This document shows positions 3,053 to 64,000 of a stretch of DNA of 64,000 nt, piece by piece (position 1 is the stretch's first letter; each line of letters starts with the position of its first letter). The stretch is from Raillietiella orientalis. Taxonomy: Eukaryota. The translations under genes were made by a program, and so were the position numbers. The notes under the pieces are model-generated. The model saw only the letters and a list, made by a program, of their open reading frames with translations. It was not told the DNA's origin and did no database searches. The DNA is taken from assembly GCA_036172245.1 (NCBI GenBank), contig JAYWIR010000098.1, forward strand, positions 1 through 64,000, written 5' to 3'.

Positions 3053-5020
3053 CGAGCGCAGCAGATCGAGCGTGTCTCGGGTGGACGGCTGCTGTGGCGT
3101 TGCGGCACCGTTAAATCTTGCGGTGTCGCGTTCCTGCTTTGTCCAGCTGTCGAGGCTGCGGCGAAGGGCGTACGGTTCGATAGTGCCGGTCGCGTAGGGC
3201 AGTTGACCATTAAGTTGTCCGACTCCAACGATCTAATCATTACCAGCGTGTAGTCCCCAAGCTGCAGCGACGCGCTAAGGTCAAAGGCAAGGAGAGATTC
3301 CTACCTTACCCTGAGGCGCGAATATCTGGACGAAGCGGAAGTGCGCAAAGTGCACCTAATCGCAGGTGACTTTAACCTGCGCCTGCTGTCAGGTGCGTCC
3401 GACACACTTCGGGACCGCGTGAACGAGCTGTGCGCAGAGATGCACACGCGCAACTCGTTCGTGGGAGATCCGGAAATGGCCGACAGCGTAAATCACGTAT
3501 TTTTTCAGCCGCACCTATGCTCACGCGTAAGCAGGCGCGGCAAGTTACCGTCGGAACTGTCGGACCATGACCGGATCGTACTCCAGGTGAGCCCACACGA
3601 TAGGGGTCCGCCGTCATTTGCGTGGCGCTTACCGGGGGACTGGCTGAAACTTACAGAAGCCGCGGAGCATTTACAATTATTCATACGAGGTTGCAGCTTT
3701 TAGACGCTTCAGGACTGGGACCGCTTCAAGCGCTCTGTCCGGAATTTTTGCGACGAGTTCCCTATGAACCTCCTGCCTCCCGGGTTTGGTGAATGCTTGC
3801 GTAACGAGAGATGTTATTTACAATCTCGATGTCGCGACACTAGACGTACGCAGGCTAGACGAATACCGTGCGGGAGCCAAAAGGCAGGCGTGGCAATCCG
3901 TGTCGGTTAGCTTACTGGACGACCAGGGTTCGGAGCACTCAGCCGCGCCCACGTAAAATGCTTATTAAGAAAATTCTAATCCTCCCTGTACGCGCGCGCT
4001 TCACTGGAACGAATGTCTCGCGACTTCTTCTTCCGGAAGGCGCTTCGGCGTTCAGGGAGGAAGATAGAAAGACCCTCGACGAGCCTTTCACGATGGGCGA
4101 GATCATCTCGGTCATCTGAAAGCTCAAGAGGCGGAAGGCTGCAGGGTAGGACGACTTACCAGCGGAATTTTTCCAATGTTTCGCGGCAGAGTTCACTCCC
4201 CTGGTGAAGAAACTCACCTTGCTTATCCGCGAAACGGGCGACGTCCCCGCCTCGTTTCGTTCGGCAAAGGTGCGTCCCTTCCCTAAGGGAGGAGACCTTC
4301 GGAGCATGAGCAACTGGCGGCCGATTACCGTGATAAACGCGGACGCCAAGTTGCTGAAGAAATTGTGGGCTGAACGCCTAAGGCGGTTAGCGGAAAGCTT
4401 CATTAGCCCGGAGCAGACATTTGCTGTTCCCGGGCGGAGCATGGATGCCAACCTGTTCCTCGCCAGCATTTTTTTCGTGCTTTAACAGGAAAGGGTCAGG
4501 ATGGGCAACCGGACTTTCGGAATTTCTGCCGCTAGGAAACGGGATGTTTGGAGAAGGGGAGGGAGCCCTTGCAGTCGCAGTCAATTTGCATAAAGCATTC
4601 TACTGTGTCGACCAGAGGCTCCTCCTGGAGCTGCTGGAACGCTTGGGCTTCCCGGTATCTTTGTCGACCTACCTGCGATCCTGCTGGCGCGACGGTTTCA
4701 TCCAGATCTTTTTCAGTGGACACACCGTGCACGGCGTACCAATGCGACGCGGCATACGGCAGGGCGACCGTGACGGCCCCACAGCAGACTGTGATCCCTT
4801 CCCGTGCCCTTCAGATCTTGATTTTATATATTTCTTGTTTTTTGTTTTATTTTTTTGTTTTGTCCTTGGCCCCTCTGCTGTCGTGGTGGACCGAGCCGGA
4901 ATAGGAACCAGTGACCCGGCAGGCTTTATTTTGTATCCCAGTGAGTGGCCGGACCACCTGGTCAGACACCAACGTTTGATTTATTCCAAAGAATGAACGC
5001 CCCGGCGCAACCGGTTGAAA
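3053..5020 (+). mobile_element. Family A element, 3' part: APE remainder, RT N-half, ~1.7 kb deletion at ~4768, 3' UTR and terminal hairpin
   Basis: GDFN, SDH, NWRPIT and GIRQGD motifs. Inverted close copy of 46095-49740. Ends AATGAACGCCCCGGCGCAACCGGTTGAAAA. Confidence 0.85.
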
Positions 5021-5558
5021 ATCGAGTTCACGGATGGCGAAGCCCGGAGATTTTGGCGAGGATGCTCCGCCTCCTCCGAATTGCTAAGTTAGTCGGCCGG
5101 CAGCCTTCAGACCTTCCTCGGAGGCCCTTTGTTAGGCGGGAGGAGCTGAAACTCCAGTCTCGGATGATCCGAAATCGCGGACATCAGCCGCCCTCTCCTA
5201 CCTACTCGTGAGAGCAGGTGTTCATCCAGGAACGCATGGTCCGACGATCTCTCCATCCCGGGCTCACCAGCAAGCAAGTTTTGTACGCGCACGGGCGCGC
5301 ATACCTCGCTCACCAGTTGCTTCTCCCTCAAGCGGCATCTCTCCTCTGTTAACAGGTGGACGTTGAAGTGTCCTGCAAGGAGGTGTGACACGTTAGGGCC
5401 GGAGTCAGCGAACCAGCGGATGCGCAGGCCATTCAGGAATGCAAGTCGCTGGGCGTAATGCCGTCCGCCGTTCGGCGCGTAGATGTTCGTAGCGACCAGG
5501 TAGATCAAATCGGACCACTTGAGGACAAGTTGGCCTACTCTAGCTTCCTCGTCGAACT
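5021..5558 (-). pseudogene. APE endonuclease fragment (target of neighbouring insertions)
   Basis: NIYAP, AGHFN, SDH motifs; inverted copy of 45555-46094. Confidence 0.85.
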
Positions 5559-25365: not shown

Positions 25366-25545
25366 GGGATTTGGAGAAGGTGTCAGGAACGAGCGAACCT
25401 ACCTTCAGGCCCGCCGGTATTCCAGACGTCCTGACGTTCGTCGCCTGGCGGAATTCAAAGCTGAGGCGGAGAGGCAGGCCTGGCAGTCAGGCTTGGCCTG
25501 CTTCCTGGACCATCAGGGCCAAGAACGCTCCAGCCCAGCTCAGGT

Positions 25546-27764
25546 TTTTCACCCGGGTAAGCCGGTGCTTTTATTACTAAAATTTTGATATTACAAAATT
25601 TTGTGATGCGAACAAGTGCCTGCAAATGTTTTTGAAGTCGGCGTCAACGGCACGCTTTCTCCAAGGAGATCGCTGCCCAGTGGATGGCATTCCGGCTGGT
25701 CCTTCCTCTCCTAGACGTGGTCCACTTCTCCAAGATACCGCGCATGCAGCAGAGTACTGCTACGCTTCCGGAGGCTGGCAAGCCGTTTCGTGGAAGGCAA
25801 CACACTCCAGAATCAAGTGGGAAAAGGTCTCCCTTCTCCCGCACTCTGCACAACTAGCATCCACATTCCTAAATGTCCAGCGAGACAGGCGTGCTCTGCT
25901 TAAAAGTCCCCAGTGGAGCAGAAGCAACGCCGTCTCCTGCCACTGCAGGGGAAGGGTGCCGTTGTCCCAAGACGCTGGGGGCCACTTCACCTCCTCCGGA
26001 GGTATACCGAGCAGCGCGCCCCAGCGTAAAAGTCCGTTCGGCGGGACACTCGGGGTACTAGCGTCCGCTAGTTTCCTCGGCGTTCACGCCTTTAATGATT
26101 TTTTCCTGCCTCCGATGAGGCAGGACACTTCTCACGATGCCTGTTGGTGGCTGTCCGGAACTTTCCTGAGGAAGGGCAGCACTGGGGCAAGGGGGGTGAA
26201 GGAAGCCCACAGAAGTTTCCGTGGGTTGGTAACGATCTCCTGGAGTGGCTGACAAGCGTGCCTCCCTCTGCGGAGGCAGGAGAAGTCCTCATCGCTGGTG
26301 CCGTTGATCTTCGCCCATGCGGAAACGGACTCCTGAAGCCAGGTAGTCCAGTCCGCTGGGATGCAGGAGATCCAAGGGTTGTCTCTCATCAGAGCAACCA
26401 AATCCTGCAGCTGATAACCACAATGGTTCAGGCTGCCTTCGTTGGCTACCAGGATTGAAATCAATCCGGAGCAGCCGGTTGCCCTGTGAGCAAGGAGTCT
26501 TGATGGTGCACACCAGGGTGCTGTCCAAAACTTTGCCACAAGGGCAAGTTTTCTGAATTGGAGCTGTCGCTCCATGCGCTCCAGCGTCAGGATACCAAGT
26601 CCACCGTCCCTGCGTGGAGCGCACAAGTCTTTGAGTCCGACGCGGGGCCTCCGGTTGCCCCAGAGGGCTTTTCGTATAAGGCCCCTAGTCCGTGTCCTGA
26701 TTTGATATGGGGTAGGGCACACAAAAAGTAGGGGGCGAAGGAGGGAAGCCGCGAAAGCGTTCCATACCGTGGCCCGTTCCTGCAAGTGGAACTTGCCTTC
26801 CCGGAACGGGCCGATCGCCAGCTCCACCTTTTGTAGACGGTCGGACCAGGCTTCTGCAGAGCAGAAGTCCCACAACGGAACGCCAAGGTACTTGATGTAC
26901 CTGCCCGTGGGGATCCCCAAGCGGATCCAGTCCGACCGTCCGTCCCTCGTCGAGTCGGTGAAAAGCAACGACGATTTCGTCCTGTTTACCTGGAGGCCTG
27001 TCCCACGGTATAGCAACTCGAAGAAATCCTCAAGCGCCGATGCCGGGGTGGACCCGGGAAGCAGAAGCAGAAGATCATCGGCATAGGCCGACACGGCAGG
27101 CGTGCCGGGACACGAGCTCGGCAGGGTTGCCAAAGTCTCCCTGTATGCTCTCAGCACCAACTCAAAGTAGATGCTGAAGAGCAGGGGGCTGAGGCTGTCA
27201 CCCTGCCGGATGCCACGACGAACCGGCATGCCGAACACGTGCCGGCCGCTGAAATTAATATTGATGTACGCGAAGCGGTAGCAGGAGCGCAGGTAGGCCA
27301 GGAAGACGGCCGGAAATCCCAAGCGTTCCAGGAGCTCCAGAAGGAGCTCCTGGTCGACGCAGTCGAAAGCTTTACGCAAATCGACTGCGACCGCAAGGGC
27401 TTCAGGCTCCGCATCTTCTTCCCGGCTTCCCTCCTCCCTGTCAATGGAGAGTCCAGGACTTTCCCGACGTAGCTGCGCCTCGCGTTGTTGCAACTGCCAG
27501 AATGTGCTGGCGAGGAACAGGTTGGCCTCCATGGTTCGTCCGGGAACAGCGTATGTCTGTTCCGGACTGACCACGGAGTCCGCTACCCGTCCCACGCGCT
27601 CAGCTCACAGTTTGGCGAGCAACTTTGCGTCCGCATTCACTACAGTGATGGGTCGCCAGTTGCCAACGTTGCGCAAGTCTCCTCCCTTAGGAAGGAGACG
27701 TACTCTAGCTGACCGGAACGAGTTGGGGACATCCCCACGTTCACGGATAAGCATACATAGTTTT
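25546..27764 (-). mobile_element. 5'-truncated family A element with a perfect 14-bp TSD
   Basis: AGCCCAGCTCAGGT at 25532-25545 and 27765-27778; 3' hairpin at 25546-25575. Confidence 0.92.
26132..27595 (-). CDS. Reverse transcriptase core, 487-aa open frame
   Basis: QTYAVPGR, DLRKAFD, GIRQGDSLSPLLF, YADD, KYLG, DGGLG. Confidence 0.85.
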   Translation of the reverse strand: MGRVADSVVSPEQTYAVPGRTMEANLFLASTFWQLQQREAQLRRESPGLSIDREEGSREEDAEPEALAVAVDLRKAFDCVDQELLLELLERLGFPAVFLAYLRSCYRFAYININFSGRHVFGMPVRRGIRQGDSLSPLLFSIYFELVLRAYRETLATLPSSCPGTPAVSAYADDLLLLLPGSTPASALEDFFELLYRGTGLQVNRTKSSLLFTDSTRDGRSDWIRLGIPTGRYIKYLGVPLWDFCSAEAWSDRLQKVELAIGPFREGKFHLQERATVWNAFAASLLRPLLFVCPTPYQIRTRTRGLIRKALWGNRRPRVGLKDLCAPRRDGGLGILTLERMERQLQFRKLALVAKFWTAPWCAPSRLLAHRATGCSGLISILVANEGSLNHCGYQLQDLVALMRDNPWISCIPADWTTWLQESVSAWAKINGTSDEDFSCLRRGRHACQPLQEIVTNPRKLLWASFTPLAPVLPFLRKVPDSHQQAS

Positions 27765-30526
27765 AGCCCAGCTCAGGTAAGCCGCATCATGCAGGAGTTT
27801 TCTTCCCCCCTGTACGCGTCATTAACACCCGAGTGCCAATTCCCGCAGCGGTTGCTGCCGGATGGGGCTCCCGCGATCGGGGAGGAAGTTTGTTCCAGGT
27901 TGTCGGAACCATTTACGGTGACAGAGATTGTCTCCGCCATAAGTAAATTAAAGACAAGAAAGGCACCAGGGGAGGACGGCCTGCCCGCGGAGTTTTACAA
28001 ACACTTCGCGAAAGAGCTTGCACCCCTGGTGCTCAGGCTAAGTACGCTGATCCACGAACACGGCGAAGTTCCCGCCTCGTTCCGATCAGCAAAAGTACGT
28101 CTCCTGCCGAAGTGAGGAGACCTACGCAACATTAGCAACTGGCGTCATATCGCAGTGGTGAATGCGGACGCAAAGTTGTATGTCAAATTGTGGCCTGAGC
28201 GTTTAGGACCGGTGGCGGATTCCGTGATCAGCCCGGAGCAAACATACGCTGTTCCCGGGCAAACCATGGAATCCAACCTACTCCTCGCCAGCACATGGTA
28301 ACAGTTGCAACAGCGCGTTGCAGAGGACGGTCAAGGGAGCCTTGAGCACCCCTCTGACCAGAGAGACCCGGTTCAGGGTGAGGCGGAATCAGCGGGAGCC
28401 TTCGCCGTCGCTGTCGAATTGCGCAAAGCATTCGACTGCGTCGACCAGCATCTCCTTCTGGAGCTCCTGGAACGAACGGGATTCTTGTCCGTGCTTCAGT
28501 CGTACCGGCGCTCCTGCTGGCGCAACGCGTACATAAATATTGGTTTCAGCGGCCGGCACGTGTACGGCGTGCCAGTGCGCCGCGGCATCCGGCAGCCTGA
28601 ACCCCTTGCTCTGCAGCATCTACTTTGAGTTGGTGCTGAGTGCATACAGGGTAACTCTGGCAACCCTGCCTAACTCGTGTCCCGGCACGCCTGCCGTTTC
28701 GGCCTATGCAGACGATTTTCTGCTGCTGCTTCCCGGGTCCACCCCGGCGAGTGCGCTCGAGGATTTCTTCGAGCTGCTGCGTCGCGGGACGGGCCTGGAG
28801 GTGAACGGGGCGAAGTCGTCTATGGTCTTTGTCGGTACGGCGTGGGCTGGTCGGTCGGACTGGATCCGCTTGGGGAACCCCACGGGCAGGTGCTTCAAGT
28901 ACCTCGGCGTTCCGTTGGGGGACTTCTCCGCAGCAGAAGGCTGGTCCGACCGTCTCCGAAAGGCAGCGTTGGCGATCGGTCTGTTCCAAGAAAGCAAGTT
29001 TTACTTGCAGGAACTGGCCGCAGTGTGGAACGTTTTTGCGGCCCCCCTTCTACGCCCTTTACTTTTTGTGTGTCCCGTTCCTTATTTTGTCAGGAAAAGA
29101 GCAGCGGACCTCCTACGGCCAGTCCTTTTGGGCAAAGGGAGGTCCCGTTTGCGTCTTAAAGACTTGTGCGCTCCACGTAAGGACGGTGGACTTGGCCTTC
29201 TTAAGATGGAGCGTATGGAAGTACAATTTCAGTTCAGGGTTCTCGCCCTTGCATCGGAATTGTAGGACACGCCTTGGTGCAGTTCAGCACGACTTCTATC
29301 CCAGCGAGCCTCAGGATATGGCGGACTTTCTTCGTTTCTCTGGGCGCGCGACCACAGACAAGCACACTCCGGCTTTCATCTGCGGCGCATGGCCGCTGTG
29401 GTTCGGAAGAACACCTGGATCTCCTGCGTCCCAGGGAACTACTCGGCATGGTTGCACGAGTCAGTCTTCACTTGGGAAAAGTTTTACGTTCCGGCGGTCA
29501 CAAAAAACACTTGCCCGAAAAAGCACGCCCGCTGGACGCTACAGGAGATCGTGCAGTCCCACGATTAGCTTCTGTGGGCCCTGATAACCCCACTTGCTCC
29601 TGTGCTGCCCTTCCTACAAAACGCTAGAGACAACAGGGAGCAGTGGAAATGGACCGTGTCCTGCACCATCGGAAGTAGGACACAAAAGATTAAGGCGTCG
29701 ACATCTCGGCAGCTAGCGGACGCTGCGACGCCGAGTGTCTTGCCCAACGGATTCCGACGCTGGGGAGAGCTACTCGGACTATCTGCGGAGGAGATGAAGT
29801 GGCCCCCAGCATCTTGGGATAGTGACTTCCTTCCCCTGAAATGGCAGGAGGTGGCGCTGCTCGTGATACATTGGAATTTACCCTTCAAGGCACGCCTCTC
29901 TCACTCCACTCGGGGGGCTGTGGATTCCCAGTGGGACCGGTGCGGGGAGAAAGAGACATTCCCCCACCTCCTTATTGAGTGCATTGCTCTCCCCCCTCTC
30001 TGGGATCGTCTTGAAGCAATCCTGGACATTCGCGGAGGCGGCCCTAAAGACGTTTTTAGGCGACTCTTCTTGCGTGATGCCTTGTCCCCTCTTGCTTCTG
30101 TGGCAGTTCTTTGCTGCATTAGAGGGATCGTGTCGGCTTGGAACGCGACAACAAGAAGGCACCAAGCTTGCGGCAATGTTGTACATTAAACTCGCCTTTT
30201 GTGAGAAACATTTGCAGGTGGAGACACCTGGGTGCACAACGGACGCAGCTTGTGAAGATCCTGAACAGGATCTAGAGGACCTTTAAGCGTGCAATGTGAT
30301 TCCCTTCGCGCCCCTCCCTCCTTAAACATAAGTACCCTCTTCAACTTTAACATTTTTTTATTTGTTTCGTTTTTTTCTTCCCATTTCCGCGCGTTGGAAG
30401 GACCTCGCCGGTTTAGAACTGGCAAGAAGCAGGCTGCTTTGTGCTGAACCATCAGGTTCTTCACCCGGAGATTACATGTATTTTTATTTTTTTTAAAATA
30501 AATGCCCCGGCATATTTGGGTAAAAA

Positions 30527-33500: not shown

Positions 33501-34898
33501 GGCAAAAAGAGGTCCCGTGTGAGGCTCAAATTTTTCACGGTCCACGTAAAGACGGTGGACTTGGCGTACTTACGCTGGAGCGCATGGAACTACAACTCCA
33601 ATTCAGGACTCTCGCACTCGCCGCCGAATTGTGGGACACGCTTTGGTGCGTTCCAACACGCCTCCTGGCACAACAAGCCTGTGGATCCGGCACACTTTTG
33701 TCGTTTCTGTCTGCGCGCGTCTGCAGAAAAGCACATTGTGACTCTATGCTGCGACGCATCTTCGTTGTGATTCGGGAGAACGGCTGGATCTCCTGCCTCC
33801 CAGGGAACTACTCTGCCTGGTTGCACGAGTCAGTCTCCACCTGGGAAAAGATCCACGTTCAGGCGGTCACGAGGAACACTTGCCGGAAAAGGCACGCCCG
33901 CTGGACGCTGCAGTAGTTCGTGCAGTCCCACGACAAACTTCTGTGGGCGTTAATAACCTCCCTCGCCACAGTGCTGCCCTTCCTTGTGAATGCCAGGAAC
34001 AGTAGCGAGCAGGGGAAATGGACCGTGTCCTGCAATATAATCGTCAGGACACAATCGATAATGACGTGGACATCTCGGCAGCTAGCTGACGCTGCGACGC
34101 CGATTGTCCCGCCTAACGGAATTCGACGCTGGGGCGAGCTACTCGGACTATCTCCGTAGATAAAGTGGCCCCAAGCGTCCTGGAACAGTGCATTCCTCTT
34201 CCTGAAATGGCAGTATGTGGCGTTGCTTGTGGTACTCTGAGGATTACCATTCAAAACACGCCTGCAACACACCACCCGCGGGGCTGTGGATCCTAATTGT
34301 GACCGGTGTGGGGAAAAAGAAACATTCTCCCATCTTCTTTTTGAGTGCAGCGCCCTCCGCCCTTTGTGAGATCGTCTCGCGGCGATCCTGGACTTGCGCG
34401 TATGCGGCCTAGAGGACGTTTTCAGGCGCCTCTTCTGTAGTGATGCCTTTTCCCCCCCCGCTTCCGTAGCAATCCTCTGCTGCATTCGAGGGATCGTGGC
34501 GGCTTGGAACGCCCCAAGAAGAATGCTTCAGCCAACCGGCAACGCCTTACACTGGACTCGCCTTTTCGCGCGCAGTGTCTGCAAGTGGCGCCACTCAGGT
34601 GCTGAAAGGACTCAGCTTGTTCGGATGCTGAACAGGATCTAGGGGATCTGTCCACGCGCACCGTGATCCATTCCCCTACCTCCCATCTCTACAACATTTG
34701 TTCACCCCCCACATTTGAGCTTTTTGTTTTTTTTGTTTTTCTTTATTTTTCATCCCCGCGCATCGGAAGGACCTCTTTGGCATGGAGCCGGTAACCAGCA
34801 GGTTGTTTTGGAGTGGTGAACCTTCGGGTTCGCCACGCGACAATTTTTCTGTTATTTTATTTCTATGAAATAAATGCCCCGGCACATCCGGGTGTGAA
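30527..34898 (+). mobile_element. Family A element: ORF1 C-terminus (to 31082), disrupted ORF2 (~31080-34666), 3' UTR
   Basis: CWNVNG, NLYAP, GDFN, YTDD, CDRC...H...C, AATAAA 34869. Confidence 0.88.
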
Positions 34899-37800
34899 TC
34901 GCGAAGGCGCGCGTAACCATGGACGACCGGAGGCTCATGCCTTTGCAGATTCTGCTCGGTGACGTTGTCGTCTATCTCCGGTTTCCCGGGCAAACAACCG
35001 CTTGCAGCAACTGCGGGAAGGAGGGCCATCGTACGGGGAAGTGCCCAACACGCAGTTGCCGATACTGTAAGCTGCTCGGTGACTCGATGAACGAGTGCGC
35101 CGAGCTAAAACGAAAGAGGAGGGCGAGAAACCTTTTCGCAACATCGCCGTCCGCGCCGACACCATCCGCCCCGTCGTCGGGGAAAAAATCCGGCGCCAAG
35201 GAGAATTCGCAGCGGAGAAGTGAAAAGTCCGCTTGCGCGGGCGATTCTCGGAGCAACGCTCCACAAAAACCCGCGCGAAAGGACAAGAAGCTTCTCCAAG
35301 CTGCCTCAGTAAAGTCCCGAGCGACCCAGTCCGATGATAACATCGGGCAGGCTGCAAAACAGCCGCTTCCGTCCGCTCTCGCTCCGAAGCAAAAAAGCGG
35401 TGGCACGCACGGGAAGACCACCGGAGCGTCGAAAAATGGGGTCGCGCGCCCCTTTGCCCGCGTCAAAGAAGCCGGCTAAGGCGGGCCGAACGCCAGCAAA
35501 CGCTAAAAAGCCTCGCGCGACCCCCAAGAATCCCGCGACTCTGCTCGCATCTTCCGGTAAGGAGGTGCAGAAGGCAAACGTGACCAAGGAGACACTGGCC
35601 TCCATCGCCGTATCCGAGGCCTTGGGAAGGATGCGAAGCACCCTGGAAGCCCCCTTGCCCAACCGAGGCAAACAGGAAGGCGGCGAGGATGGCTGGAACT
35701 TCGTCGGGGGAAAGAAGAAGCGCAAACTGCGCGATCCTTACCACTTCCCGATCAAAAAGGTAGGCGGGGTGAAGATACAACCCCGCGCGCCCAGAAAGGC
35801 GCAAGGAAAAGCCTCTGTTGCCGCCGCGCGCGCTTCCGCAAACACCCGCGGCGAGAGGAAATCCGCCGAAGCCGAGATCCCGAAAGGGGGATCGGCGACG
35901 AAGGCACCCTCTGAGAGTGCTGGACCAGCTCCGGGCTGCCAGCAAAAAAAGAGGCAGGCTAAACGCCCGCCGCGCACGCGCAATTCGGACTCTGAGGTGG
36001 AGTCCGAGGGCAGCGCTCAGGCTCACCAAGCGCCGGTCAAGGCCAGGGCTGCGAGCAAGCCAAAACTTGCCAGGCAAGCGCCTGATGCCGGGAACGGTTC
36101 CGGATGCTCCTCGGAGCCCGAGGCAATGGTCCTCGACTCCACCGAGCCAGCCGCGAGCGGCGCGGCGGGGACAGAAAGAGCTTTTACTACCTCATCCGCC
36201 GTGCTCCTGGCTGATGCCTCGCCGGACGGGGCGAGAAACGCACCTCCATGTCCGCAGCAGCAATGCGCGGTCTCGCTTCTTCCCGGCGCGTCCGAGTGGC
36301 CTGTTGGAACGTCAACGGGCTCTAGGACAGCGAGAAGAGGCGATTAGTTGCCAACGTCTAGCGCGACTTCGATCTGGCCCTGCTGCAAGAGATTCAGGCA
36401 CTCTCCGAGCAACAAGCGGCCGATCTGCAAGTTCGCGCAGGCGGGACGCTCCATTGGAGGTCAGGCTCCCAGAATACCTGCGGAGTCGCATTCTTTGTCC
36501 GGGGCAGGGTGGCGGGAGCGATGCGGAGCGTTTGTTTCGACGAGGAAGTTCGTGTGGGCGAACTTGTTCTCAAGTGGTCCAAATCGATCAACCTTGTCGT
36601 CATGAACGTGTGCGCGCCGAGAGGCTCCGCGCGTCACGCCGAGAAACTGGAGTTTTTCGAGAGACTGCGCGACCGCTGGCTCAGCAACTCCGGCCCCGAC
36701 GTGGCTCACCTCGTAGCCGGGGACTTTAACGTCCACGCGCTATCGGAGGAGTCTCACCGTCGCCGGGAGAAACGGCTGGTCAACGAGGTGTGCGCGTCGG
36801 TGCACGCCTCGAATTTGCTGACCGAGGAACCCGAAATGCGTGCTTTGTTTGACCATGTGTTCCTCGACGATCACCTGCATTGCCGGGTGGGTCGAAGAGG
36901 TCCCGTGCCGTCCGAGCTTTCCGACCACTACAATCTGGAGTTTGAGCTACTCCCGGCAGGCAAGGGCCCTCCGACGCACGTCTGGAGTAGCCGACCGAAT
37001 GGCTGAGAAATCCGGTGGCTGCGGAGCACCTCCGCCAGGATCTCCGGACCTTTGCCGTTCGAGAACTCGTTTACTGGGACGATCTGTAAGATCGGTCCGC
37101 GAGTTCTGCAGCCGGTTTGCCTTGCGCCTGCTTCCCCGTGGCTTCGGGGGAGGCGTTGCCAACAGCAGAGATTATCTGCAGGCCCGCCAATTCTTCCGAT
37201 GCGCGGACGTCCGGTACCTTGCGGAGTACAAGGCCAGGGCTGAGCGCCAGGGCTGGCAGTCAGGAGCAGCTTGTCCGGTTGACGACCAGGGCCTGAAGTG
37301 CTCGTGCGCGGACGAAGTTTGCCGCATCCTAAAGCGCTACTACTTTTCGTTGTATGCTAGGGAGCCGACGAAACCCAGTCTCTCGGAGCTGCTTCTCCCG
37401 GCAAATTAACTTGCGGTCGACGAGGAGGAACGCGCCACTCTGGACTTTCCTTTCACGGCGGCAGAAGTGTCTTCCGCTATAGCGGGCCGCAAGTAGCCCA
37501 AGGTGCAAGGTGAGGATGGTATGCCTACGGAATTCTTCCAGTTCTTCGAGGCGGAACTCATCCCCCTGGTGCTGAGGCTTTCTGCGCTGGTGCGAGAGAC
37601 GGGCAATGCACCGTCTTCGTTTCGCTCAGCAAGGCTGCGCCCCTTGCCGAAAGGCGGAGACATGCCCCATTTAAGCAACTGGCATCCCATCACCCTGGTG
37701 AATGCGGACGTCAAGTTGTTGTCCATGCTCTGGGTCGCGCGCCTAGGCAGGATCGCTGGATCCGTGGTAAGTCCGGAGCAGTCTCACGCTGTTCCCGGGC

Positions 37801-40058
37801 GGTCCATAGAGGCGAACCTGTTCTTCGCGCGCACGTGGCTCGAGCTGCAACGTCGCGTAGCGCATGACAGCCAGGCAACCGCATCTGCGGCTGCCAGGGC
37901 TAGGCGTCGCTGCATTCGGCCTGAGGAAGCGCCGGGTGGCTTGCGGTCGCGGTCGATCTCCGCAAGGCGTTCGTTTGCGTAAATCAGGATCTCCTGATGG
38001 AGCTCCTTGAACGCCTCGGTCTCCTGGTGACCTCGTGGCGTATTTGCGCGTTTGCTGGCGCCACGCGCTCATTTCTATCTCTTTCAGCGGCTGTTACGTG
38101 TACGGCGTGCCGGTGCGGCGGGTCATCAGGCAGAGCGACAGTTTAAGCCCGTTGCTCTTCAGCATCTTCTTTGAGTTGGTACTGAGGGCGTACATGCTGA
38201 TGCTGGCCAACCTGCTGAGCCTTTGTCCAGGAACGCCGTCCGTGGCGGCCTATGCTGACCACCTGCTTCTCCTCTTACCCATGACCACTCCGGCGTCCAG
38301 ACTCGAGGATTTCTTTGAGCTGATCCGCCGAAGAGCGGGCATGAGCGTAAACAGGAGCAAGAGCGTGGTCGTACCCATAGGTGCGGCGTGGGAGGGGCAG
38401 TCCGAGTGGATCCGCCTGGGGATCCCGACCGCTTCGTCCACCCAATATCTGGGCGTTCCGCTGGGAAACATCAGTCCAGTGGAAGTGTGGTCGGACTGCC
38501 TTCGGAAGGCTTCGAATGCCCTGAGCCCGTTCCAGAATGGCAGGTTCCTCCTGTCGGGGCGGGCCGCGATATGTAACACCTTCGTTGCCCTCCTCTTGCG
38601 GGCTTCTGTTTCTCGTTTGCCCGCCCCCCTACTCGGCGAAGCTCCAGGCCCACAGCCTGTTAAGGAACGCTCTGTGGGGTCCTGCGAGGTCCAGGATCTG
38701 CCTGAAAGACTTGGCGGCTCCTCGTCGGGATGCTGGCTTAGGCATCCTGACGCTGGAGAGAATCGAGCTGCAGGTGCAGCTTCGAATGTTGGCCCTGTGC
38801 GCCAACCTTTCGTCCACTCCGAGGTGCGTTCCTGAGCGCCTGCTCCTGCGGCGCTGCACCAGCAGCGACGGACTTCTGTCGCTGCGTCCACTCACGGAGC
38901 GCCTCACGACAAGTTTCGGTTTTTGTTTCAAAGCGCTCTACTGGCTATTAACAGCTTAGGAATGGATCTCCTGGCTCTTAACTAAGTTTAAATACTGGCG
39001 GGAGGAACCGTTGTATGGCTGGGCAAAGCACCAGGATGTTTCTTTCCTTGAACTCCGTTGCGTTCAACTCTCCCCGTACTGCACGGTGGATAAGGTCTGC
39101 AGCAGCCAGGAGAAGTGGACCGGCCTGGCCCTCACCCCCCTTGCCGACGCACTGTCAGCCCTCAGGGCAACAGATGACAGCTGCCAATGGGGCGTCGGCG
39201 AGGATGATGGGAGGTCGCCTTCACCATTGCAAGAACAACACGACCTATTGGCGGCTGGAGGACTTGCGAGCTGGCAGACGCCGCCACGCCTCGCCACATC
39301 TCGAAGGGTCTCCTTTGGTGTAGTGAACACTTGAGTGTGCCCCCCGAAGAACTTGTGGTCCCTCCCTTCTGTTTGAACACTTCTGTGTTCCCTATTCCGT
39401 ATAAGCAGGACAGGTGCAGGTTGCACTGGGGTTTTCACTCCAACCAGCGGATGAACCCGGTTTTCCGGGATAGTTGTCTCCCCAAACTGTAAGCGGTGCG
39501 GTGAAGAGGAAACGCTCCCTCACTCGCTTTTGGACTGCGGTGCCCTCCAAGGACTTTGGCGGAGGCTGGCCTCAGCTCTCCTGCACCAGTGGGACGCCGC
39601 GAGGCACTTGATGCGCAGCTTCTTCACGCCAGGCGGCCTGTCTTTGGGTGCTGTCGTTGGAATCGTGTGTTCCACTGTGCCATCGACAAGGCCCACCGAG
39701 AGTTGGAGAAGCTGGCCAGCGTTCGTCAGCCCAGCAGATTAGCCATCGCAAGCATGTCGTTGGCTGCCGAGTGGGCCCATCTTCCACAGGACGTAAGGAG
39801 AGAGATCGCCGGCATCCATCGTCGGTTTTGAATGGAAGGAACGGACTCACCAAAGACCCCTGTCCCTTGCCCTCCATATTTCTATTTTTATTTTTTATAG
39901 TAGTGTATTTGTGGTCCCTTCCCTCTTGTTCCGCACTTTCAGCATACCGACCTGCTTGTCGGGGATCCGACCCCCTTCGTATCTTGTTTTTCCCTTTGTC
40001 CGAAAACTCTGTTCCCGGATAGTTAGTAATAAACGCCCCGGCGCACCCGGGTGGCAAA
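34899..40058 (+). mobile_element. Family A element: ORF1 (5' lost, to 36347), disrupted ORF2 (36248 to ~39830), 3' UTR
   Basis: CSNCGKEGHRTGKC, GDFN, SDH, YADH, AATAAA 40028 plus hairpin. Confidence 0.88.
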
Positions 40059-46094: not shown

Positions 46095-49000
46095 TTTTCA
46101 ACCGGTTGCGCCGGTTCGTTTATTCTTTAGAATAAAACAAACGTTGGTGGCTGACCAGGTGGTCCGGCCACGCACTGGTATACAAAATTAAGCCTACCGG
46201 GTCAGCGGTTTGTATTCCGGCACGGTCCACCGCCACAGGAGAGGGTCCCAGGACAAAACAAAAAATAAAGCAAAAAAAAGAAATATATAAATTTAAGATC
46301 TGGGAGGCACGGGAAGGGATCACAGTCTGCTGTGGGGCCGTTACATCCGTTGCAGGATGCCAGCAAGCTGTTTTTGGATGTTTAAATCCAGATGGATCCA
46401 TCCTGTCGCCGTCCGCATAAATTCGGCTGCGCACTGGACGGCACCCTTATCGCGAGGTTCTCTCGTTGCTTTGCTCCACGCAGCGACGATCCCGCGAAAG
46501 CAGCACAGTGCTGCTAAAGCGGCTGAGGTCCAAAGGGCGTCGCAAACGAAGAGGGATCTGATTGCGTTTCTGGGGTTGCCACAGGGGTTACCGATTGTGG
46601 CGACAAAACGGTTCCAAAGGGGCTGAAGAGGCACACAATCCAACAGAAGGTGAGTGAGGGACTTCCGTTCTCTTCACCTCGCACAATTAGGGCTCAACGC
46701 TCCCCAGGTCCAATGGTGTCATCGTTCGTTGCAGGGGACTCCCCAATGCAGCAACAATACCGCCCACTCCTGCCATTTTAAGGGGAGGGAGGAGATGTTC
46801 ATCAGCACAGGGGGCCACTTTAATTGTTCCCGCGGAACATTTAGCACCTCGATCCAGCGCAAAAGTCTAACAGAAGTGGTAGTTTGGGCCCCGATATCGC
46901 AGAGAATTCCCGTTTTCCATTCCCCGATCTTTTTCTCCGTACCAGAGATTGTGACGTAAACATCCCATTTCGCAGCAGTGTTGCTGTTTAAATGTTCCGC
47001 AAGCGAAAACAGCATTGAAGCGAGGGGAGTTTTTCTTGCCCACGCTCGTTTTGGGGGGTTCTCCAGGACCTCTGGGAGCGTCAGGCGGTCATTACGGGCG
47101 AAAAATTGTCTCTGCCCTTCTTGAATGCGTTGCTGGTTCTCCTTGCCCACGTCTGAACCGTTTCCTGCAGCCATGCAGGTCCGTTAACGGGGCGACAGCA
47201 GAGCCATTCTGCGTTCTTCCTCATCAGGTCAGTCACTCTCCGTAGCTGCAGCCCGCAGTGACCGTCTTGGCGGCGCCGACGGAGCGCAAGGAAGGATGAC
47301 AGTCCCACCTTGCCTGTAGCCTGCTCGACGAGGAGACGTACGGGCTCGCACCAACTACTATTCCAATATTTCGCTACTAGGACGAGTAACCGAAACTGGA
47401 GCTGGAGCTCCAGCCGCTCTAGCGTCAGGAGGCCGACACCGCCGTCCCGACGCGGAGCGCTCAAGTCCGCAAGCCGGACTCCGGCCCTCCCATTACCCCA
47501 TAGGTCAATCCTTAGGTGGTCCTTCGTCCGCTTTTTAGTCTCTGTGGGGGGGGACAACCGAAAAGCAGGGAACGGAGGAGGGGCGCCGCGAATGCGTTCC
47601 ACACCGCGGCCCGTTCCCTGGAAAAACCTGCGGCCTTGGAACAGGCCGATCGCCTTCTCCACCTTTTGAAGGCAGCTCGACCACGCATCCGAAGGGAGAT
47701 AATCGCCCATCGATACACCGAGGTACTTGAAGTCCCGTACCGTGGGGATCCCCAAACGGACCCATTCCGGCTGCCTTGCCCACGCCGAACCGATTGGCAT
47801 GACGGACAACTTCGCCCTGTTCACCTCAAGCCCGGTTCCCCGACTTAGCAGGTCGAAGAACTCTTCTACCGCCTATGCCGGGGTGGACATAGGGAGCAGC
47901 AGCAGTAGGTCGTTTGCATATTCTGACATTGCGGGCGTACCGGAATAGTCGCGCGGCAGGTGCGCTGGAGTTTTTCTGTACGCCCTCAGTACCAAATCGA
48001 AGTCGGTACTGAAGAGCAAGGGACTCAGGCTGTCTCCCTAACTTATGCCGCGTCGCACTGGTACGCCGTGCACGGTGTGTCCACTGTAAAAGATCTGTAT
48101 GAGCGCGTCGCGCCAGCAGGATCGCAGGTAGTTCAGCAAGGAGACCGGGAAGCCCAAGCGTTCCAGGAGCTCCAGGAGGAGCCTCTGGTCGACACAGTCG
48201 AATGCTTTCTGGAAATCGACTGCGACTGCGAGGGCTCCCTCCCCCCCCCAACAATACCGTTTCCTAGCGGCGGACATTCCGGAAGTCCGGTTGCCCATCC
48301 TGACCCTTTCCTGTTGGAGCGCGAAAAAGGTGCTGGCGAGGAAGAGGTTGGCATCCATGCTACGCCCGGGAACAGCATATGTCTGCTCCGGGCTAATGAA
48401 GTTTTTCGCTAACCGCCACAGGCGTTGAGCCCACAATTTAGCCAGCAACTTGGCGTCTGCGTTTATCACGGTAATCGGTCGCCAGCTGCTCATGCTCCGA
48501 AGGTCTCCTCCCTTAGAGAGGAGACGCACCTTTGCCGAACGAAACGGGGCGGGGACGTCGCCCGTTTCGCGGATCAGCAAGGTGAGTTTATTCACCAGAA
48601 AAGTGAGCTCTGCCGAGAAACATTGAAAAAATTCCGCTGGCAGGCCATCCTCCCCAGGAGCCTTTCGCCTCTTGAGCTTTCCGATGGCCGAGATAATCTC
48701 GCCCATCGTAAAAGGCTCGTCGAGGGTCTTTCTACCTTCCTCCCTGAACGCCGGAGCGCCTTCCGGAAGAAGAAGTCGCGAGACATCCCGTTCCGGTGAA
48801 GCGCGCGCGTACAGGGAGAAGTAGAATTTTTTTAATAAGGATTTTACGTGGGCGGAACCGAGTGCTCCGAACCCTGGTCGTCCAGTAAGCTGGCCGACCC
48901 GGATTGTCACGCCTGCCTTTTGGCTCCCGCACGGTGTTCGGCTAGCCTGCGTACGTCTGGTGTTCGCGTGTAACATCGAGATTGTAAATACCATCTTTCG

Positions 49001-51885: not shown

Positions 51886-54050
51886 TTGTCAACCGGATAT
51901 GCCGGGGAATTTATTATTCTAATTAATATGAAATTAGTTAGTGATGTCTATTGATATGAGTTTGTAATAAAAATTCTTGGTTTTCCTACGCTGGCATCCG
52001 TGTCGAATGGCGGTGCCGAGACCGGTTCGGTCCATTTCCAAGGCGCGTGTAAAGGGAAAACTCAAACAAAAAGAAACAAAAAGAGAGATAACGGGGAGGG
52101 AAACAGTTATATGGGGAGAGGGGGGAGCAGGGCAGGGATTACTGGGCGCCTGGGTCGGTCCTCCGCATCCTGTTAAGGATGCAGTCAAGTTCGGTTTTTA
52201 TAGTGAAAGGTAGACGCCACCTTGTCGCCGTCTCTAAAGAGATCGTCGTCCAGTAAATGGCGTCCCTGCATCTTGGACCTCTACTTCTGGCGTGCCACCA
52301 TCGCACGATGCCGCGCACGCAGGAGAGAACTGCTAGAGATGCTGCGGGGCGCAGGCCGTCACGCAGAAAGAGGCGACGGTAAATGTCTTTAGGGTCGCCT
52401 ACTGGAAGATGGAGGATTGGGCGATTTGTCTCCAGACTCCAACCAGGGCGACACGCTCGAGAGCGAGATGCGAAAAGGCTTCTCTTTTACCGCACTCGAC
52501 ACAGCGGGCATCCATATTCCCCAGTGTCCAGTGAGACAGGCGTGCTGTGCTTAACAGTCCCAAGTGCAGAAATAGCAACGCCGTCTCCTGCCACTTCAAC
52601 GGAAGTTTGCCGCAATCCCAACACGCTGAAGGCCACTTTACCTCCTCCGGAGGTATTGCGAGCAGCTCTACCCAGCGCGCAAATCCGTGAGGCAGGACGC
52701 TCGTTGTGGCAGCGTCCGTTAGCTCTCCAGTCGTCCATGCCTTTAAAGGTTTTTTCCTGCCTCGGATGAGGCAGGACAATTCCCACGATGCCCGCTCGTT
52801 GCTGCTTCTAATGTTTTTCAGAAAGGACAGAACGGGGGCAAGGTGGGTAAAACAAGCCCACAGAAACTTCCGAGGCGTGTTGATAATCTCCTGCAGCGGC
52901 TGTCGAGCGTACGGTCTTCGACGTAACCTGTTGTGTTCCGCCTCTCTCGTGCCGTTGATCTCCGCCCTCGCGGAGGTTGACTCCTCACGCCAGGCAGTGC
53001 AATTCGCGGGTAGGTAGGAGATCCATGTATTCTCTTTAATAAGTGAGACCATCCGACGCAAATGGAAGCCAGACTTGTTGCAGGGGCTGCGCTGGTAAGC
53101 CACGAGGAGCGAGGGCAATCCCTCGCAGCCGGTCGCTCTTCTGGCATGGAGACGAGTCGGTACGCATCATGGCGTCATCCATTAGTTAGCCGCTAGGACT
53201 AGCTTCCGTATTGTTGTTTGTAGTTGGATGCGCTCCAACGTAAGGTGGCCCAAGCCATCATCCCTGCATGGAGCGCACAAGTCTTTCAATCGGACTCGCA
53301 ACCTCGCTGTGCCTCAAAGGGCTTTCTACAAGAGATCTTTCTTCCGTGTCTGTATGATGGGAGGTATGGAGCATACAAAAAGTAGAAGGCGGAGAAGAAG
53401 AGCCGCAAAAGCTTTCCACACCGCGGCCCGTTCCTGCAAGTAAAACTTGCCGTCCCGGACCGGGCCGATCGAAAACTCCACCTTTTGGATACGGTCGGAC
53501 CAGGCTTCGGCAACATAGAAGTTTCCCAACGAAACGCCAAAGTACTTCAAGCACCTCCTCTTGATGATCCTGGAGCGGATCCAGTCCGGCCGTCCAATTT
53601 AACGCCGTATTTTCAAAAAGCAGTGGTGATGTCGAAAGAATCAAGGATTTCTCTCTGTTTACTTCGAGGACCGTCCTGCGGCGCAGCAACTCAAAGAAAC
53701 CTTCGAACGCCGACGCCAAGGTGGACCCTAGGAGCAGGAGCAGATGGTCGTAGGCGTAGGCCGACACGGCAGTCGTGCCGGGACAAAAGGTTGGCACGGT
53801 TGCCAGAGTCTCCCTGTGTGCCCTCAGCACTCGCAGCAAGTGAATGCTGAAGAGCAAGGCGCTCAGACTGTCACTCTGGGGGATGCCACGCCGAACCGGC
53901 ACGCCGTACACGTGCCGGCCGCTAAAAGTGATGTTTATCACAACGAAGCGCCAGTAGGAGCGCAAGTCAGCCCGTAAGACGGCCGGAAATTCCAAGCGTT
54001 CCAGGTGCTCCAGGAGGAGTTCTTGGTCGACGCAGTCGAACTATTTACGC
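51886..54050 (-). mobile_element. Family A ORF2 3' half plus 3' UTR, related to 25546-27764
   Basis: FDCVDQ, PPEEVKWP, CVEC...H; AATAAA 51910-51915 plus hairpin. Confidence 0.85.
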
Positions 54051-55977: not shown

Positions 55978-58900
55978 TTTTCACCCGGTCACGCCTGGGC
56001 GTTTATTTCATATAAATACAGCATAAATAAATATATAAAATAAACCAGTTGCGGACCATGCCTTCAACCAACGACGGCACAAGTATCAAGAGAACATTCC
56101 CACAAACCGTTCAGTGTAATTCTGGATCGCTGGCCAGAATTACACAGAACGGTTTGTGGGAAACGGGAAAACATACAAACAAAAACAAAAGAAAAAGAAA
56201 TCAACGGGGGACGCAGGGACAAGGGTCTTTGGAATCGCTCTGGTTCTCTCCGGCATAATAGTGATGGCACCGGTATTTTAGCAGAGCGAGCGGGGAAGGG
56301 GTATGACTGGGCTTGAGGACGTAGTTCTCACCGGATTAAGCCGTTTCTAAAAGTCTGTAAATCGGCGGTGGATGACGGCGATGTCCTGTTTGACGTCGTC
56401 ACGAAGATTTCCATGGATTCTGCTGCAAACCGGTGAGCCTCCCTTCGCTGCGCTGACAACTCCAGGGCGTAGCGGGCCTTCACGATGGCGCGAATGCAAA
56501 ACATGGTTGCGAAAATCGCGCCTACCGAAAATCGATTTCTGCTGAAGAAGCGCTGCAGCAAATCAATGGCAGTGCCTCCGTGCGGCAGGATGGCTGAAAT
56601 AGGCCTTGGCCACAGTTCACAAAGGTTATTGCAGTACATCAAGAGGTGCGGAAAAGACTCGATCTCACCGCACCTCTAACAGTTTGGCGCAGCAGCTCCC
56701 CCGGAAACGATGCTTCCCTGCCGATTACAGTGGAAACTCCAGTGTGAAAAGAGCAGCACATCTTGTTCCCACTTTTAGAAGAACACAAAGCTGTCCAAAC
56801 AAACGGAAGGAACCACTATCTCTTCGCGGGCTACAATTAAATATTCACTACACCGAAGCAGACCCTTCACCCGATTACGAGAAGTGGCAGTTTCCACCAG
56901 CTCCTTTGTCGTCCAGCAGCCGAGAAACATACTGACTCCCGCTATAAAGCAGGAGAACTCCCATTTCGCCGGGAAGCAACTGTCCTTGCTTGCCCTGAGT
57001 GCAGACAGCGCTGCAGCGAGCAATGAGGCGGCCAGACGATTCGACATCTTCTTGTCCTGCATGACTTCGTCCATTGGATGACTGAGGAGAAGTCGCAGGC
57101 ACCGAAGATCTTCCGGGCGCGTTCCTTCGGAAGCTGCCCACGATGAAAAAGATTCCTTTCGCCATGCATCAATGTTCATAAGGCGGCAGGAGATCCAACA
57201 TTGGGCTTCCAGCAGTGAGGAAAAATGCCTCAGCGGGAAGCCAAACCCTATTCTGGTGGGCCGAAAGTGGGGTAGCAACGATAGCAGTCCCTCGCTTCCC
57301 GTGCAGCGCCTCAGTATAATTCGTGCGGGTAAGCACCACGGCGTACACCACAGCTTGCCACAGAGCAGCAGCATTCGAAACTCCACCTGCAGCTCAATGC
57401 TTTTCAATTTTAGGATGCCCATGCCTGCATCCTGACGCGGCGCCACCAAGTCTTTAAGTCTTACGCGGGATCTTGCAGCGCATTACAACGTTTTCCGTAG
57501 AAGGCGCTGAGCCCAGACTTTGACTTCCTGGAAGTGTGCACAAACAAAAAACAGAGGGCGGAGAAGGGGGGCAACGAAGTTGTTCCAGAAGCTGGCCCGT
57601 TCCGGCAAGACTAACTCGCCTAGTGAGAACGGGCCAAGTGCACGCTCTGCCTTCCTAAGGCAGTCCGACCAGGCTCCTGAGATGCAGAAATCGTCCAACA
57701 GCACGCCAAGGTAACTTACGTACCTGCTCTTGGGGATCCTTAGGCGGATTCAGTCGGACTGCCCCTCCCACGTCGCTCCAACTGGAACAATTATGCTCTT
57801 GCTCCTGTTGACGCTCATGCCCGCACCGCGACGAATCAACTCAAAGAAGTTTTCAGGCGATGTCGCCGGGGTGCACTTGGGCAACAGGAGAAGCAGGTCG
57901 TCGGCATAGGCTGCCACGGCCGGAGTACCAGGACAGTAGCTCGGCAGGTTGGCTAGCGTCAGCCTGTAAGCTTCCAGCACCATTTCAAAATAGATGCTAA
58001 AGAGCAGCGGAATTAAGCTATCGTCCTGCCTAATTCCTCGCCTAACCGGCAAGCCGTACACGTGACAGCCACCGAAAACAATAGATGTAATCGCGTGGCG
58101 CCAGCAGGAGCAAAAGTACGCCAACAGGGATGCCGGGAGGTCTAGACGTTCCAAGACATCAAGAAGAAGCTTTTGGTTCACGCAATCGAAAGCTTTGTGC
58201 AAATCGACTGCTATCGCCATGGCTCCCGGGGTTTGTCTTTGCGACCCGCGCCTCCGTCGGTGAGAGTTCGAAGGCGTCGCTTCCGCACGACGATCCATTG
58301 CCACGCGATGCTGGAATTGCAGCCATGTTCGGATGAATAAGAGGTTCGCGTCCATGGACTGCCCAGGAACAGCGTAGGTCTGCTCCGACTTACCGAAGAC
58401 TCCGCGATCCTCCCCATCCGCGCCACCCAGAGTTTCGAGAACAACTTGACGTCCGAATTCACTTAAGTGATCGGACGCCAATTGTTCAGTTGCCGCAAAT
58501 CTCCTCCTTCCGGCAGGAGACGCACCTTCTCTGAGCGAAACCAGGCGGGGACATCGCCCGGTGGCTCGCATCAGCGACGAGAGTTGAAGCACCAGGGGGA
58601 TGAGCTCCGCCGCAAAGCACTTGGAAATTCTGCAGGGAGTCCATTTTCGCCTGGCGCTTTTCGTCTCTTGAGCCGCGAGATAGCCGAAGAAATTTCCTCT
58701 GCCGTGAATGGCTCATCGAGACGCGCGCGTTGCTCCTTGTCTACAACACGTCCATCAGTCCGCAGAAGCAGCTTAAAGAAAATGCGTTCCGTTGGTGCCT
58801 TTGCATAAAGAGAAGATTTATAGCTTCTGATTATCCGTCGCACGTCAACTGGAGCCGAGCATTCCCGGTCCTGGTCGTCGAGCAGAATTGTCGCTCCAGA

Positions 58901-59935: not shown

Positions 59936-59952
59936 GGCGAGCGGGCGGTAAG

Positions 59953-60068
59953 CGATGCCAAGGGTCGTGCCCGCGGCGGGGAAGGTCGCGCCTGCGGCGG
60001 CGATGCCGAGGGTGCCGCCCGCGGCGGCAACGGTGGCGACGTCGAGGGTTGCGCTCGCGGCGGCGGCG
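59953..60068 (+). repeat. Three degenerate MPRV.PAA coding repeats at the family B ORF1 N-terminus
   Basis: GATGCCAAGGGT, GATGCCGAGGGT, GACGTCGAGGGT, each followed by CGCGGCGG. Confidence 0.65.
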
Positions 60069-63837: not shown

Positions 63838-64000
63838 AACCCCTGCGTCGTCCCAAGGAAGAAGGCGGTTCCGGGATGAAGTCTCTTGCACACTCCATAG
63901 AAATCATGGATACGCGATACATCCTGCACATTGCCACTCACTGGGATGACTGGCCGTGTGCGGCGCACAGGGCCTACGCGCTTTTGTCGTACAACTTGAA

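Follow-up and report, generated by a model that had tools for sequence, protein, structure and literature searches.

Where does the RNA of an L1-like long interspersed nuclear element (LINE) end when the copies of the element carry no poly(A), and what in that end might the element's own reverse transcriptase (RT) recognise? The question is raised by a 64,000-nucleotide (nt) stretch of DNA from Raillietiella orientalis (contig JAYWIR010000098.1, positions 1 to 64,000; referred to here as the window), in which every copy of one LINE family, family A, that retains the C-terminus of open reading frame 2 (ORF2) closes with the same 30-nt block. In order, the block reads AATAAA, a 20-nt GC-rich segment with complementary CCGG arms and a 5-nt loop, TG, NN and AA. 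It is almost certainly the 3' terminus of the family. The whole analysis covers this one 64-kb window, and the family A sample consists of ten independent old copies.

A conserved block at the 3' ends of family A

Eleven ends of this kind had been listed in the initial annotation of the window, and the motif is present at all 11 coordinates, the one near 30497 being on the plus strand and the one near 51886 on the minus strand. The blocks, numbered by copy, are as follows.

4992..5021, plus strand: 3' block of c1, with AATGAA as a variant hexamer; a duplicate of the c9 locus that has lost an internal segment
14818..14848, plus strand: 3' block of c2, 33.6 bits; 1-nt insertion, degraded 5' arm and terminal GGCAA
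17325..17354, minus strand: 3' block of c3, placed by the covariance model
25546..25575, minus strand: 3' block of c4, placed by the covariance model; ends GGGTGAAAA(A)
30497..30526, plus strand: 3' block of c5; 3' arm TTTGGG, with the pairs retained as G-U
34869..34898, plus strand: 3' block of c6, abutting the 5'-truncated open reading frame 1 (ORF1) of c7
40028..40057, plus strand: 3' block of c7, 45.3 bits; AATAAA, CGCCCCGG-CGCAC-CCGGGTG, GCAA
45122..45151, plus strand: 3' block of c8, with CCAGG in both arms
46095..46124, minus strand: 3' block of c9, in which AACCGG/CCGGTT forms a 6-bp perfect stem
51886..51915, minus strand: 3' block of c10, with host homology up to 51885
55978..56007, minus strand: 3' block of c11, 47.1 bits, with homology to the host's apurinic/apyrimidinic endonuclease-like (APE) region up to 55978

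A covariance model of the 11 ends, run with filters off, recovers those 11 at 33.6-47.1 bits, a match by construction. The next match in the window reaches only 10.8 bits (E 6.4), so that the window holds no twelfth end or copy and no short element with this tail. Searched with up to three mismatches, the consensus first proposed for the ends gives four matches against none in 100 shuffles, and a looser pattern gives nine, seven of which are true ends (shuffle mean 1.12, maximum 5). The window contains no Rfam match at gathering thresholds, and a degenerate motif scan of prokaryotic and of viral contigs returned 0 matches in each.

Each end is located 218-603 nt downstream of the last homology to the ORF2 C-terminus and on the same strand, and a block is present in all 10 independent copies in which the ORF2 C-terminus is kept. 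The ends at 4992 (plus) and 46124 (minus) belong to one inverted segmental duplication, in which 3063-4768 corresponds to 49742-48032 (89% identity) and 4773-5556 to 46341-45560 (91%). As c1 and c9 thus share both flanks, the ends count as 10 independent ones.

Pairwise identity was calculated over 45 pairs, with c1 dropped as a duplicate. It averages 0.736 across the 30-nt block. On either side (300 nt upstream, 180 nt downstream) it is 0.43-0.52, and shuffling the sequence gives 0.49. The untranslated regions (UTRs) upstream of the ends had been described as differing, and this is borne out, identity outside the 30-nt block being at shuffle level. The block is preserved about as well as the RT-coding DNA, within an otherwise randomised UTR. 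Among the 10 independent copies, column agreement is 100% for the hexamer (AATAAA is unchanged in 10/10), 90% and 92.5% for the core CCGG arms, 64% for the loop and 80% for the last four positions. The loops fall into the classes CGTNN, CGCAM and CAYAT/CTTAC, and most of these classes, together with a C-to-T change at position 7, track the groups of the RT-DNA tree, namely c4 with c10 (support 90/94), c5 with c6 (91/99) and c2 with the pair x8 and c8 (97/98). The differences between blocks are therefore mostly lineage-level and not random decay.

The UTRs also share a layout, in which a T-rich tract, a GC-rich stretch with CCGG motifs and an AT-rich stretch precede the block. As a side observation, TTTATT starts 12-14 nt before AATAAA in five of the 11 copies (4/10 independent ones), compared with a window-wide rate of 3.2e-4 per nt for this hexanucleotide, and forms a TTTATT-N6-8-AATAAA inverted repeat upstream of the blocks at 4992, 17354, 30497, 34869 and 46124. 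In minimum-energy folds, TTTATT pairs with the poly(A) hexamer as an AU stem beside the GC stem.

A fixed end and its junctions

Positions 29-30 of the block are AA in every one of the 11 copies, the sequences diverge past position 30, and the element stops at the same motif position (…TG-NN-AA) in all copies; positions 27-28 vary between AA, GC, AC, AT and TG. The initial annotation had spoken of only 2-5 A, which is correct as a run length and is put more exactly as the invariant AA of the last two positions. A long or degenerate A-rich remnant is found at none of the ten ends. At the four host-resolved junctions (c4, c7, c10 and c11) the base past position 30 is host-derived or ambiguous. 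For c7, the host homology (H1 versus H2, 91%) starts at 40058, at an A-rich host site; for c11, homology to the host APE region runs to 55978; and for c10, host homology runs to 51885, the T there belonging to the host. At the junction of c2, host homology starts by 14853. A separate regularity is that the first non-A base past the terminal A run is a pyrimidine at 10/10 independent ends (C at six, T at four), G being absent.

The insertion of c4 is delimited on both sides.

25545..27764, minus strand: whole copy c4, 5'-truncated, 2,220 nt, inserted in c5 and bounded by a target-site duplication
25532..25544, plus-strand sequence AGCCCAGCTCAGG: 3'-side copy of the target-site duplication, 14 bp counting the next T
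27765..27777, plus-strand sequence AGCCCAGCTCAGG: 5'-side copy of the target-site duplication

This duplication of 13-14 bp is clean, and the paralogue of its empty site is found in c6 at 32128-32140. The tail of c4 consists of 4-5 A's with no poly(A), and the first-strand nick is placed at GCTCAGG/T, a site that is not T-rich. Four extra A's (in element orientation) are seen at 27761-27764, between the 5' target-site duplication of c4 and the start of homology. Target-site duplications were sought at all 11 ends, using 12-mers with at most one mismatch over 9 kb upstream. A candidate for c10, a 12-13-mer at 55064-55076, was rejected, as the match is part of an unbroken host copy and would be expected by chance.

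Family A as an L1-like LINE

Nested non-LTR retrotransposon copies with frameshifts make up nearly all of the window, whose G+C content is 52-62%; the longest stop-to-stop frame measures 566 aa and no copy is intact. RVT_1 of Pfam is matched by nine of the 26 long ORFs (seven exceed the gathering score), Exo_endo_phos by five of eight candidate ORFs upstream of the RT (four exceed the Pfam cut-off) and zf-RVT, weakly, by two of four C-terminal ORFs (20.2 and 18.5 bits, under the 27.5-bit cut-off), for a putative Cys-rich (CCHC) domain at the end of ORF2. Based on tblastn with six ORF pieces from the window, the copies are ordered as an ORF1-like region, a linker of ~300 aa, APE, a middle region, RT and the C-terminus, and the order APE, RT, C-terminus is kept in every copy. 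A conserved ORF family precedes APE, its sole domain match being a weak one to zf-CCHC_2 (E 0.031). Between different copies, the RT is 47-69% identical as protein and 71-82% identical as DNA. The stretch of ~300 aa between the zinc-knuckle region of ORF1 and APE is seen at 40435-41460 (minus), 23962-24930 (minus) and 10091-10919 (plus); it has no Pfam match at E up to 1 and a best protein atlas score of only 0.77, and atlas searches with the RT ORF or the linker ORF gave no usable lead.

Searched against the PDB, which for this contrast lacks CR1, L2, RTE, I and Jockey proteins, a five-sequence RT profile matches human L1 ORF2p over 400 positions (6e-41); its matches to R2 proteins span about 145 positions and reach 3e-19 at best. 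The APE ORF matches L1 endonucleases at 2e-7 to 2e-6. In a set of 5.8 billion proteins, one protein is 60% identical and the remaining matches are at most 34% identical. Full-length relatives of ~1,100-1,300 aa combine Exo_endo_phos with RVT_1 and often zf-RVT; those with names comprise LINE-1-type proteins of plants and one protein each from Closterium and a tick, and the stronger matches have 21-30% identity. A scan of metagenome proteins with the RT alignment produced three loci only, at 23-24% identity, none of them close. Best matches and domain order support the prediction that family A is L1-like. The family had been assigned at first to an L1/Tx1-type lineage, of which the L1 part is kept and the Tx1 part is not: no target sequence is common to the 10 independent 3' flanks, and their positions on the element differ, which speaks against Tx1-type site specificity. 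A homologous insertion site is common to c4 and c10 only among the 10 independent ends.

What the block may do

We hypothesize that the terminal block is a conserved L1-like 3' terminus that is stringently recognised by ORF2p at a fixed start, and consider this account as a whole to be somewhat more probable than not. In the proposed mechanism, AAUAAA would be the element's own polyadenylation signal, with the RNA being cleaved ~22-24 nt downstream, at the element end. The cis-element by which ORF2p binds its template would be the GC segment, acting either through a hairpin or through its sequence. ORF2p positioned in this manner would start target-primed reverse transcription at position 30, and at most 2-3 tail A's would be copied into cDNA. 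Neither a T-rich target nor annealing to the target would be needed, as the nick of c4 at GCTCAGG/T may illustrate. That the 3' end is recognised stringently is a reasonable reading of the terminal sequences, and the L1-like features of the UTR, its T-rich tract and terminal AATAAA, count in favour of the proposal when compared with vertebrate L1s as described in the available part of PMC5381506.

The hairpin deserves separate treatment. In the initial annotation the block was described as a CCCGG-loop-CCGGG hairpin; its arms are indeed complementary and conserved, whereas covariation and folding energy do not rise above controls. Conserved arms around a variable loop fit a stem, and the hairpin is best termed a potential one. 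Owing to the runs of C and G, two stem registers can be drawn. In the 5-bp stem proposed originally (CCCGG/CCGGG), 87.3% of cells are paired and there is one double change (C-G to A-U, in c9). RNAalifold favours a stem of 7 bp in which one C is bulged out; this stem additionally pairs the CG that follows the hexamer with the UG preceding the tail. When the last 109 nt are folded, z is -2.8 or lower in 4/10 copies and between -1.5 and +0.8 in the other six.

Several observations weigh against recognition of the block as a hairpin end. The single double change of the 5-bp register is equalled in 244 of 500 column shuffles, and the five outer pairs drawn by RNAalifold, 83.6% paired and with two double changes, are matched in 52/500 shuffles (32/500 for the covariation score). 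The 30-mers fold with minimum free energies of -2.3 to -10.4 kcal/mol and z values of +0.34 to -1.77, none of which is significant against shuffles. In c8, where both arms read CCAGG, two A's face each other in the stem, and one or two stem mismatches occur in several copies. No partner short interspersed nuclear element (SINE) is present in the window, where all 11 model matches are on LINE 3'UTRs and there are 0 tRNA genes. A convincing target-site duplication was obtained for c4 only, of the 11 ends searched. Finally, all family A copies are old and broken and none in the window is young, because of which neutral decay and lineage differences are mixed.

A rival explanation would be that the block is a pure polyadenylation cassette that is not recognised by ORF2p, and that priming at the first A's of the tail gives the short run. 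At poly(A) sites, the canonical distance from hexamer to cleavage is 10-30 nt, and the hexamer, which is the most conserved part of the block (10/10), is placed within this range, 24 nt before the end. Since a LINE cannot carry a downstream element, it would need AAUAAA, a constrained spacer and a cleavage site of its own; AU-rich and UGUA-like sequence is present upstream, and the structure is unsupported by covariation or energy. Vertebrate L1s all terminate with AATAAA according to the available part of PMC5381506. However, a cassette leaves unexplained why the terminal nucleotide is identical in all 10 independent copies and why no more than 2-3 A's could come from a tail, whereas relaxed priming of the L1 type on poly(A) yields long, variable tails. 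The sequence of a spacer is also normally unconserved, yet the arms agree at 90-93% compared with 64% for the loop. We regard a pure cassette as possible, although clearly less probable than not.

The block could instead act as DNA or via a host factor, either as a CCGG target for protein binding or methylation or through a snap-back hairpin of the cDNA that aids second-strand synthesis. Conservation of the arms as sequence and not through compensation would agree with this, as would c8, in which CCAGG in both arms keeps the direct repeat and breaks the pair. However, there is no independent evidence for such a role, and the strand-specific position at the extreme 3' end and the variable loop are more readily reconciled with an element of RNA or cDNA than with a duplex site, which makes it improbable. 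That the blocks resemble each other through recent shared ancestry or exchange of 3' ends (recombination or gene conversion) and not through selection is very improbable, even with c1 and c9 being a true duplicate and the sample comprising only 10 independent copies, given that in the same copies the adjacent UTR is at random-level identity, that block variants follow the RT phylogeny and that the copies are 18-30% diverged in RT DNA.

Comparison with known 3' ends

Stringent recognition by ORF2p has published counterparts within the L1 clade. In the monocot L1 group around LINE1-1_ZM, the last ~45 nt diverge by 0.144 compared with 0.570 overall, and the ends form a hairpin with compensatory changes and a tail in common with ZmSINE2/3 (Ohshima 2012, PMC3472496). 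In Chlamydomonas, the pair L1-1_CR and SINEX-3_CR shares a specific 3' end, and five of 15 green-algal L1 families have no 3' repeat (Table 1, PMC3472496); an L1 without poly(A) therefore has precedent. Stringent recognition has been proposed as ancestral in the L1s of green plants (PMC3472496), a view repeated in the available part of a review (PMC3747384). The general background given at first for this locus, with long poly(A) for L1 and a stem-loop for L2/CR1, omits these published L1-clade lineages of the stringent type.

The conserved hairpin ends of the monocot L1s provide a precedent for the proposal (PMC3472496). Family A resembles them in having a terminus conserved above the rest of the element and a potential hairpin, read in both cases as stringent. 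In the monocot L1s, the stem varies, the loop (UCU) and the 3' flank (CGAG) are conserved, and there are partner SINEs and poly(A) repeats, whereas in family A the arms are conserved and the loop varies, covariation is not significant, and there is neither a SINE in the 64 kb nor a poly(A) repeat. L1-1_CR of Chlamydomonas, compared by description only, ends in poly(A), unlike family A.

Outside the L1 clade, the L2 LINEs UnaL2 of eel and ZfL2 of zebrafish carry a short 3' stem-loop near the terminus for which binding by ORF2p and a requirement in retrotransposition have been proposed or demonstrated (PMC4176376, PMC3472496, PMC3747384, as far as the available parts of these sources go). Their terminal stem-loop and defined start of reverse transcription, as given in those texts, resemble the potential hairpin and the proposed fixed start of family A. 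The two elements differ in belonging to the L2 clade, in their (TGTAA)n slippage ends, in having no AAUAAA 24 nt from the end, as far as those excerpts describe them, and in a function tested experimentally, whereas the block in the window is known as sequence. For vertebrate L1s, the available part of PMC5381506 describes T-rich tracts in the 3'UTR and ends of AATAAA plus poly(A), and a 3' stem-loop has also been proposed for human L1 (available part of PMC5135761). Family A is like the vertebrate L1s of these excerpts in an ORF2 with APE and RT, in the T-rich tract with terminal AATAAA and in a target-site duplication of 13-14 bp, which is in the L1 range. In contrast, vertebrate L1 copies are described there with long, variable poly(A) and T-rich nicks, and family A has the fixed AA end and the c4 nick at GCTCAGG/T.

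R2 and SART1 begin reverse transcription at one nucleotide, which is determined by RNA elements of the 3'UTR (available part of PMC11194090; SART1 in PMC3472496). Both belong to other clades and are strictly site-specific, and the R2 endonuclease is of another type. R2 is also known to prime without annealing between target and template. An R2-like precision within the L1 clade, with a fixed start 24 nt after AAUAAA, a GC element and neither poly(A) nor annealing, combined with re-use of the site common to c4 and c10 to build self-nesting arrays, would be the furthest-reaching version of our hypothesis, and one that we put forward as unlikely. In a limited literature search, no description was found of a LINE end that has AATAAA, a hairpin and a short A run. 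The idea of a stringent L1 is not new. What sets the present ends apart is a combination of three traits: the hexamer is invariant and placed 24 nt before a fixed terminus, the arms are conserved around a free loop, and poly(A) is absent.

Nesting of the copies and other features of the window

The copies c4 and c10, which are sisters in the RT tree, entered the antisense strand of older copies at one homologous position, to within 0-1 nt, with junctions at 25545 and 51885/51886. Their hosts come from different lineages, one of c5/c6 type and the other of c3/c7/c11 type, and for this reason it was rejected that c4 and c10 are duplicates of one insertion. For 10 insertions, a coincidence of this kind is roughly estimated to have a probability of less than 1%. 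More generally, seven of the eight mappable flanks (those of c1/c9, c2, c3, c4, c7, c10 and c11) fall within positions 2539-3425 of the reference copy, about 14% of the element, spanning the C-terminal half of APE to the APE-RT linker, and 6/7 of these flanks are antisense. There may be a regional target preference, the interval having been chosen after seeing the data.

The copies c5, c6 and c7 are arranged head to tail on the plus strand, at 27765-30526, 30527-34898 and 34899-40057. At codon resolution, the tail of c6 meets the 5'-truncated ORF1 of c7 directly, with zero host sequence between them; this junction could have arisen by template jumping or by an insertion into c7 in which the upstream part was lost. 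For a plus-strand ORF1 piece beside c10, twin priming was rejected, as the segments are non-contiguous in the element.

A local inverted duplication (6613-6882 versus 7403-7673, 80% identity), centred near 7080-7140, truncates a minus-strand copy at its C-terminal region. A second LINE with APE and RT, family B, occupies 59952-64000 and 2 to about 1659 (plus strand). Its RT is ~30% identical to that of family A, and one 3' end of it is visible (about 1600-1659), which has an A-rich sequence (…AAAAGAAAAATTTTAGAAAAAAAAA) and lacks the block.

Implications

In this repeat-dense region, the block is of use in annotation, as it precisely marks 3' ends and the order of nesting. Beyond this, how L1-type reverse transcriptases choose their template is debated, with poly(A) only on one side and 3' structure on the other. 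The family with the block would offer a compact element for mutational testing. If the hypothesis of stringent recognition is true, family A would be a third independent case beside those of monocots and Chlamydomonas, in favour of the idea that such recognition is old in the L1 clade.

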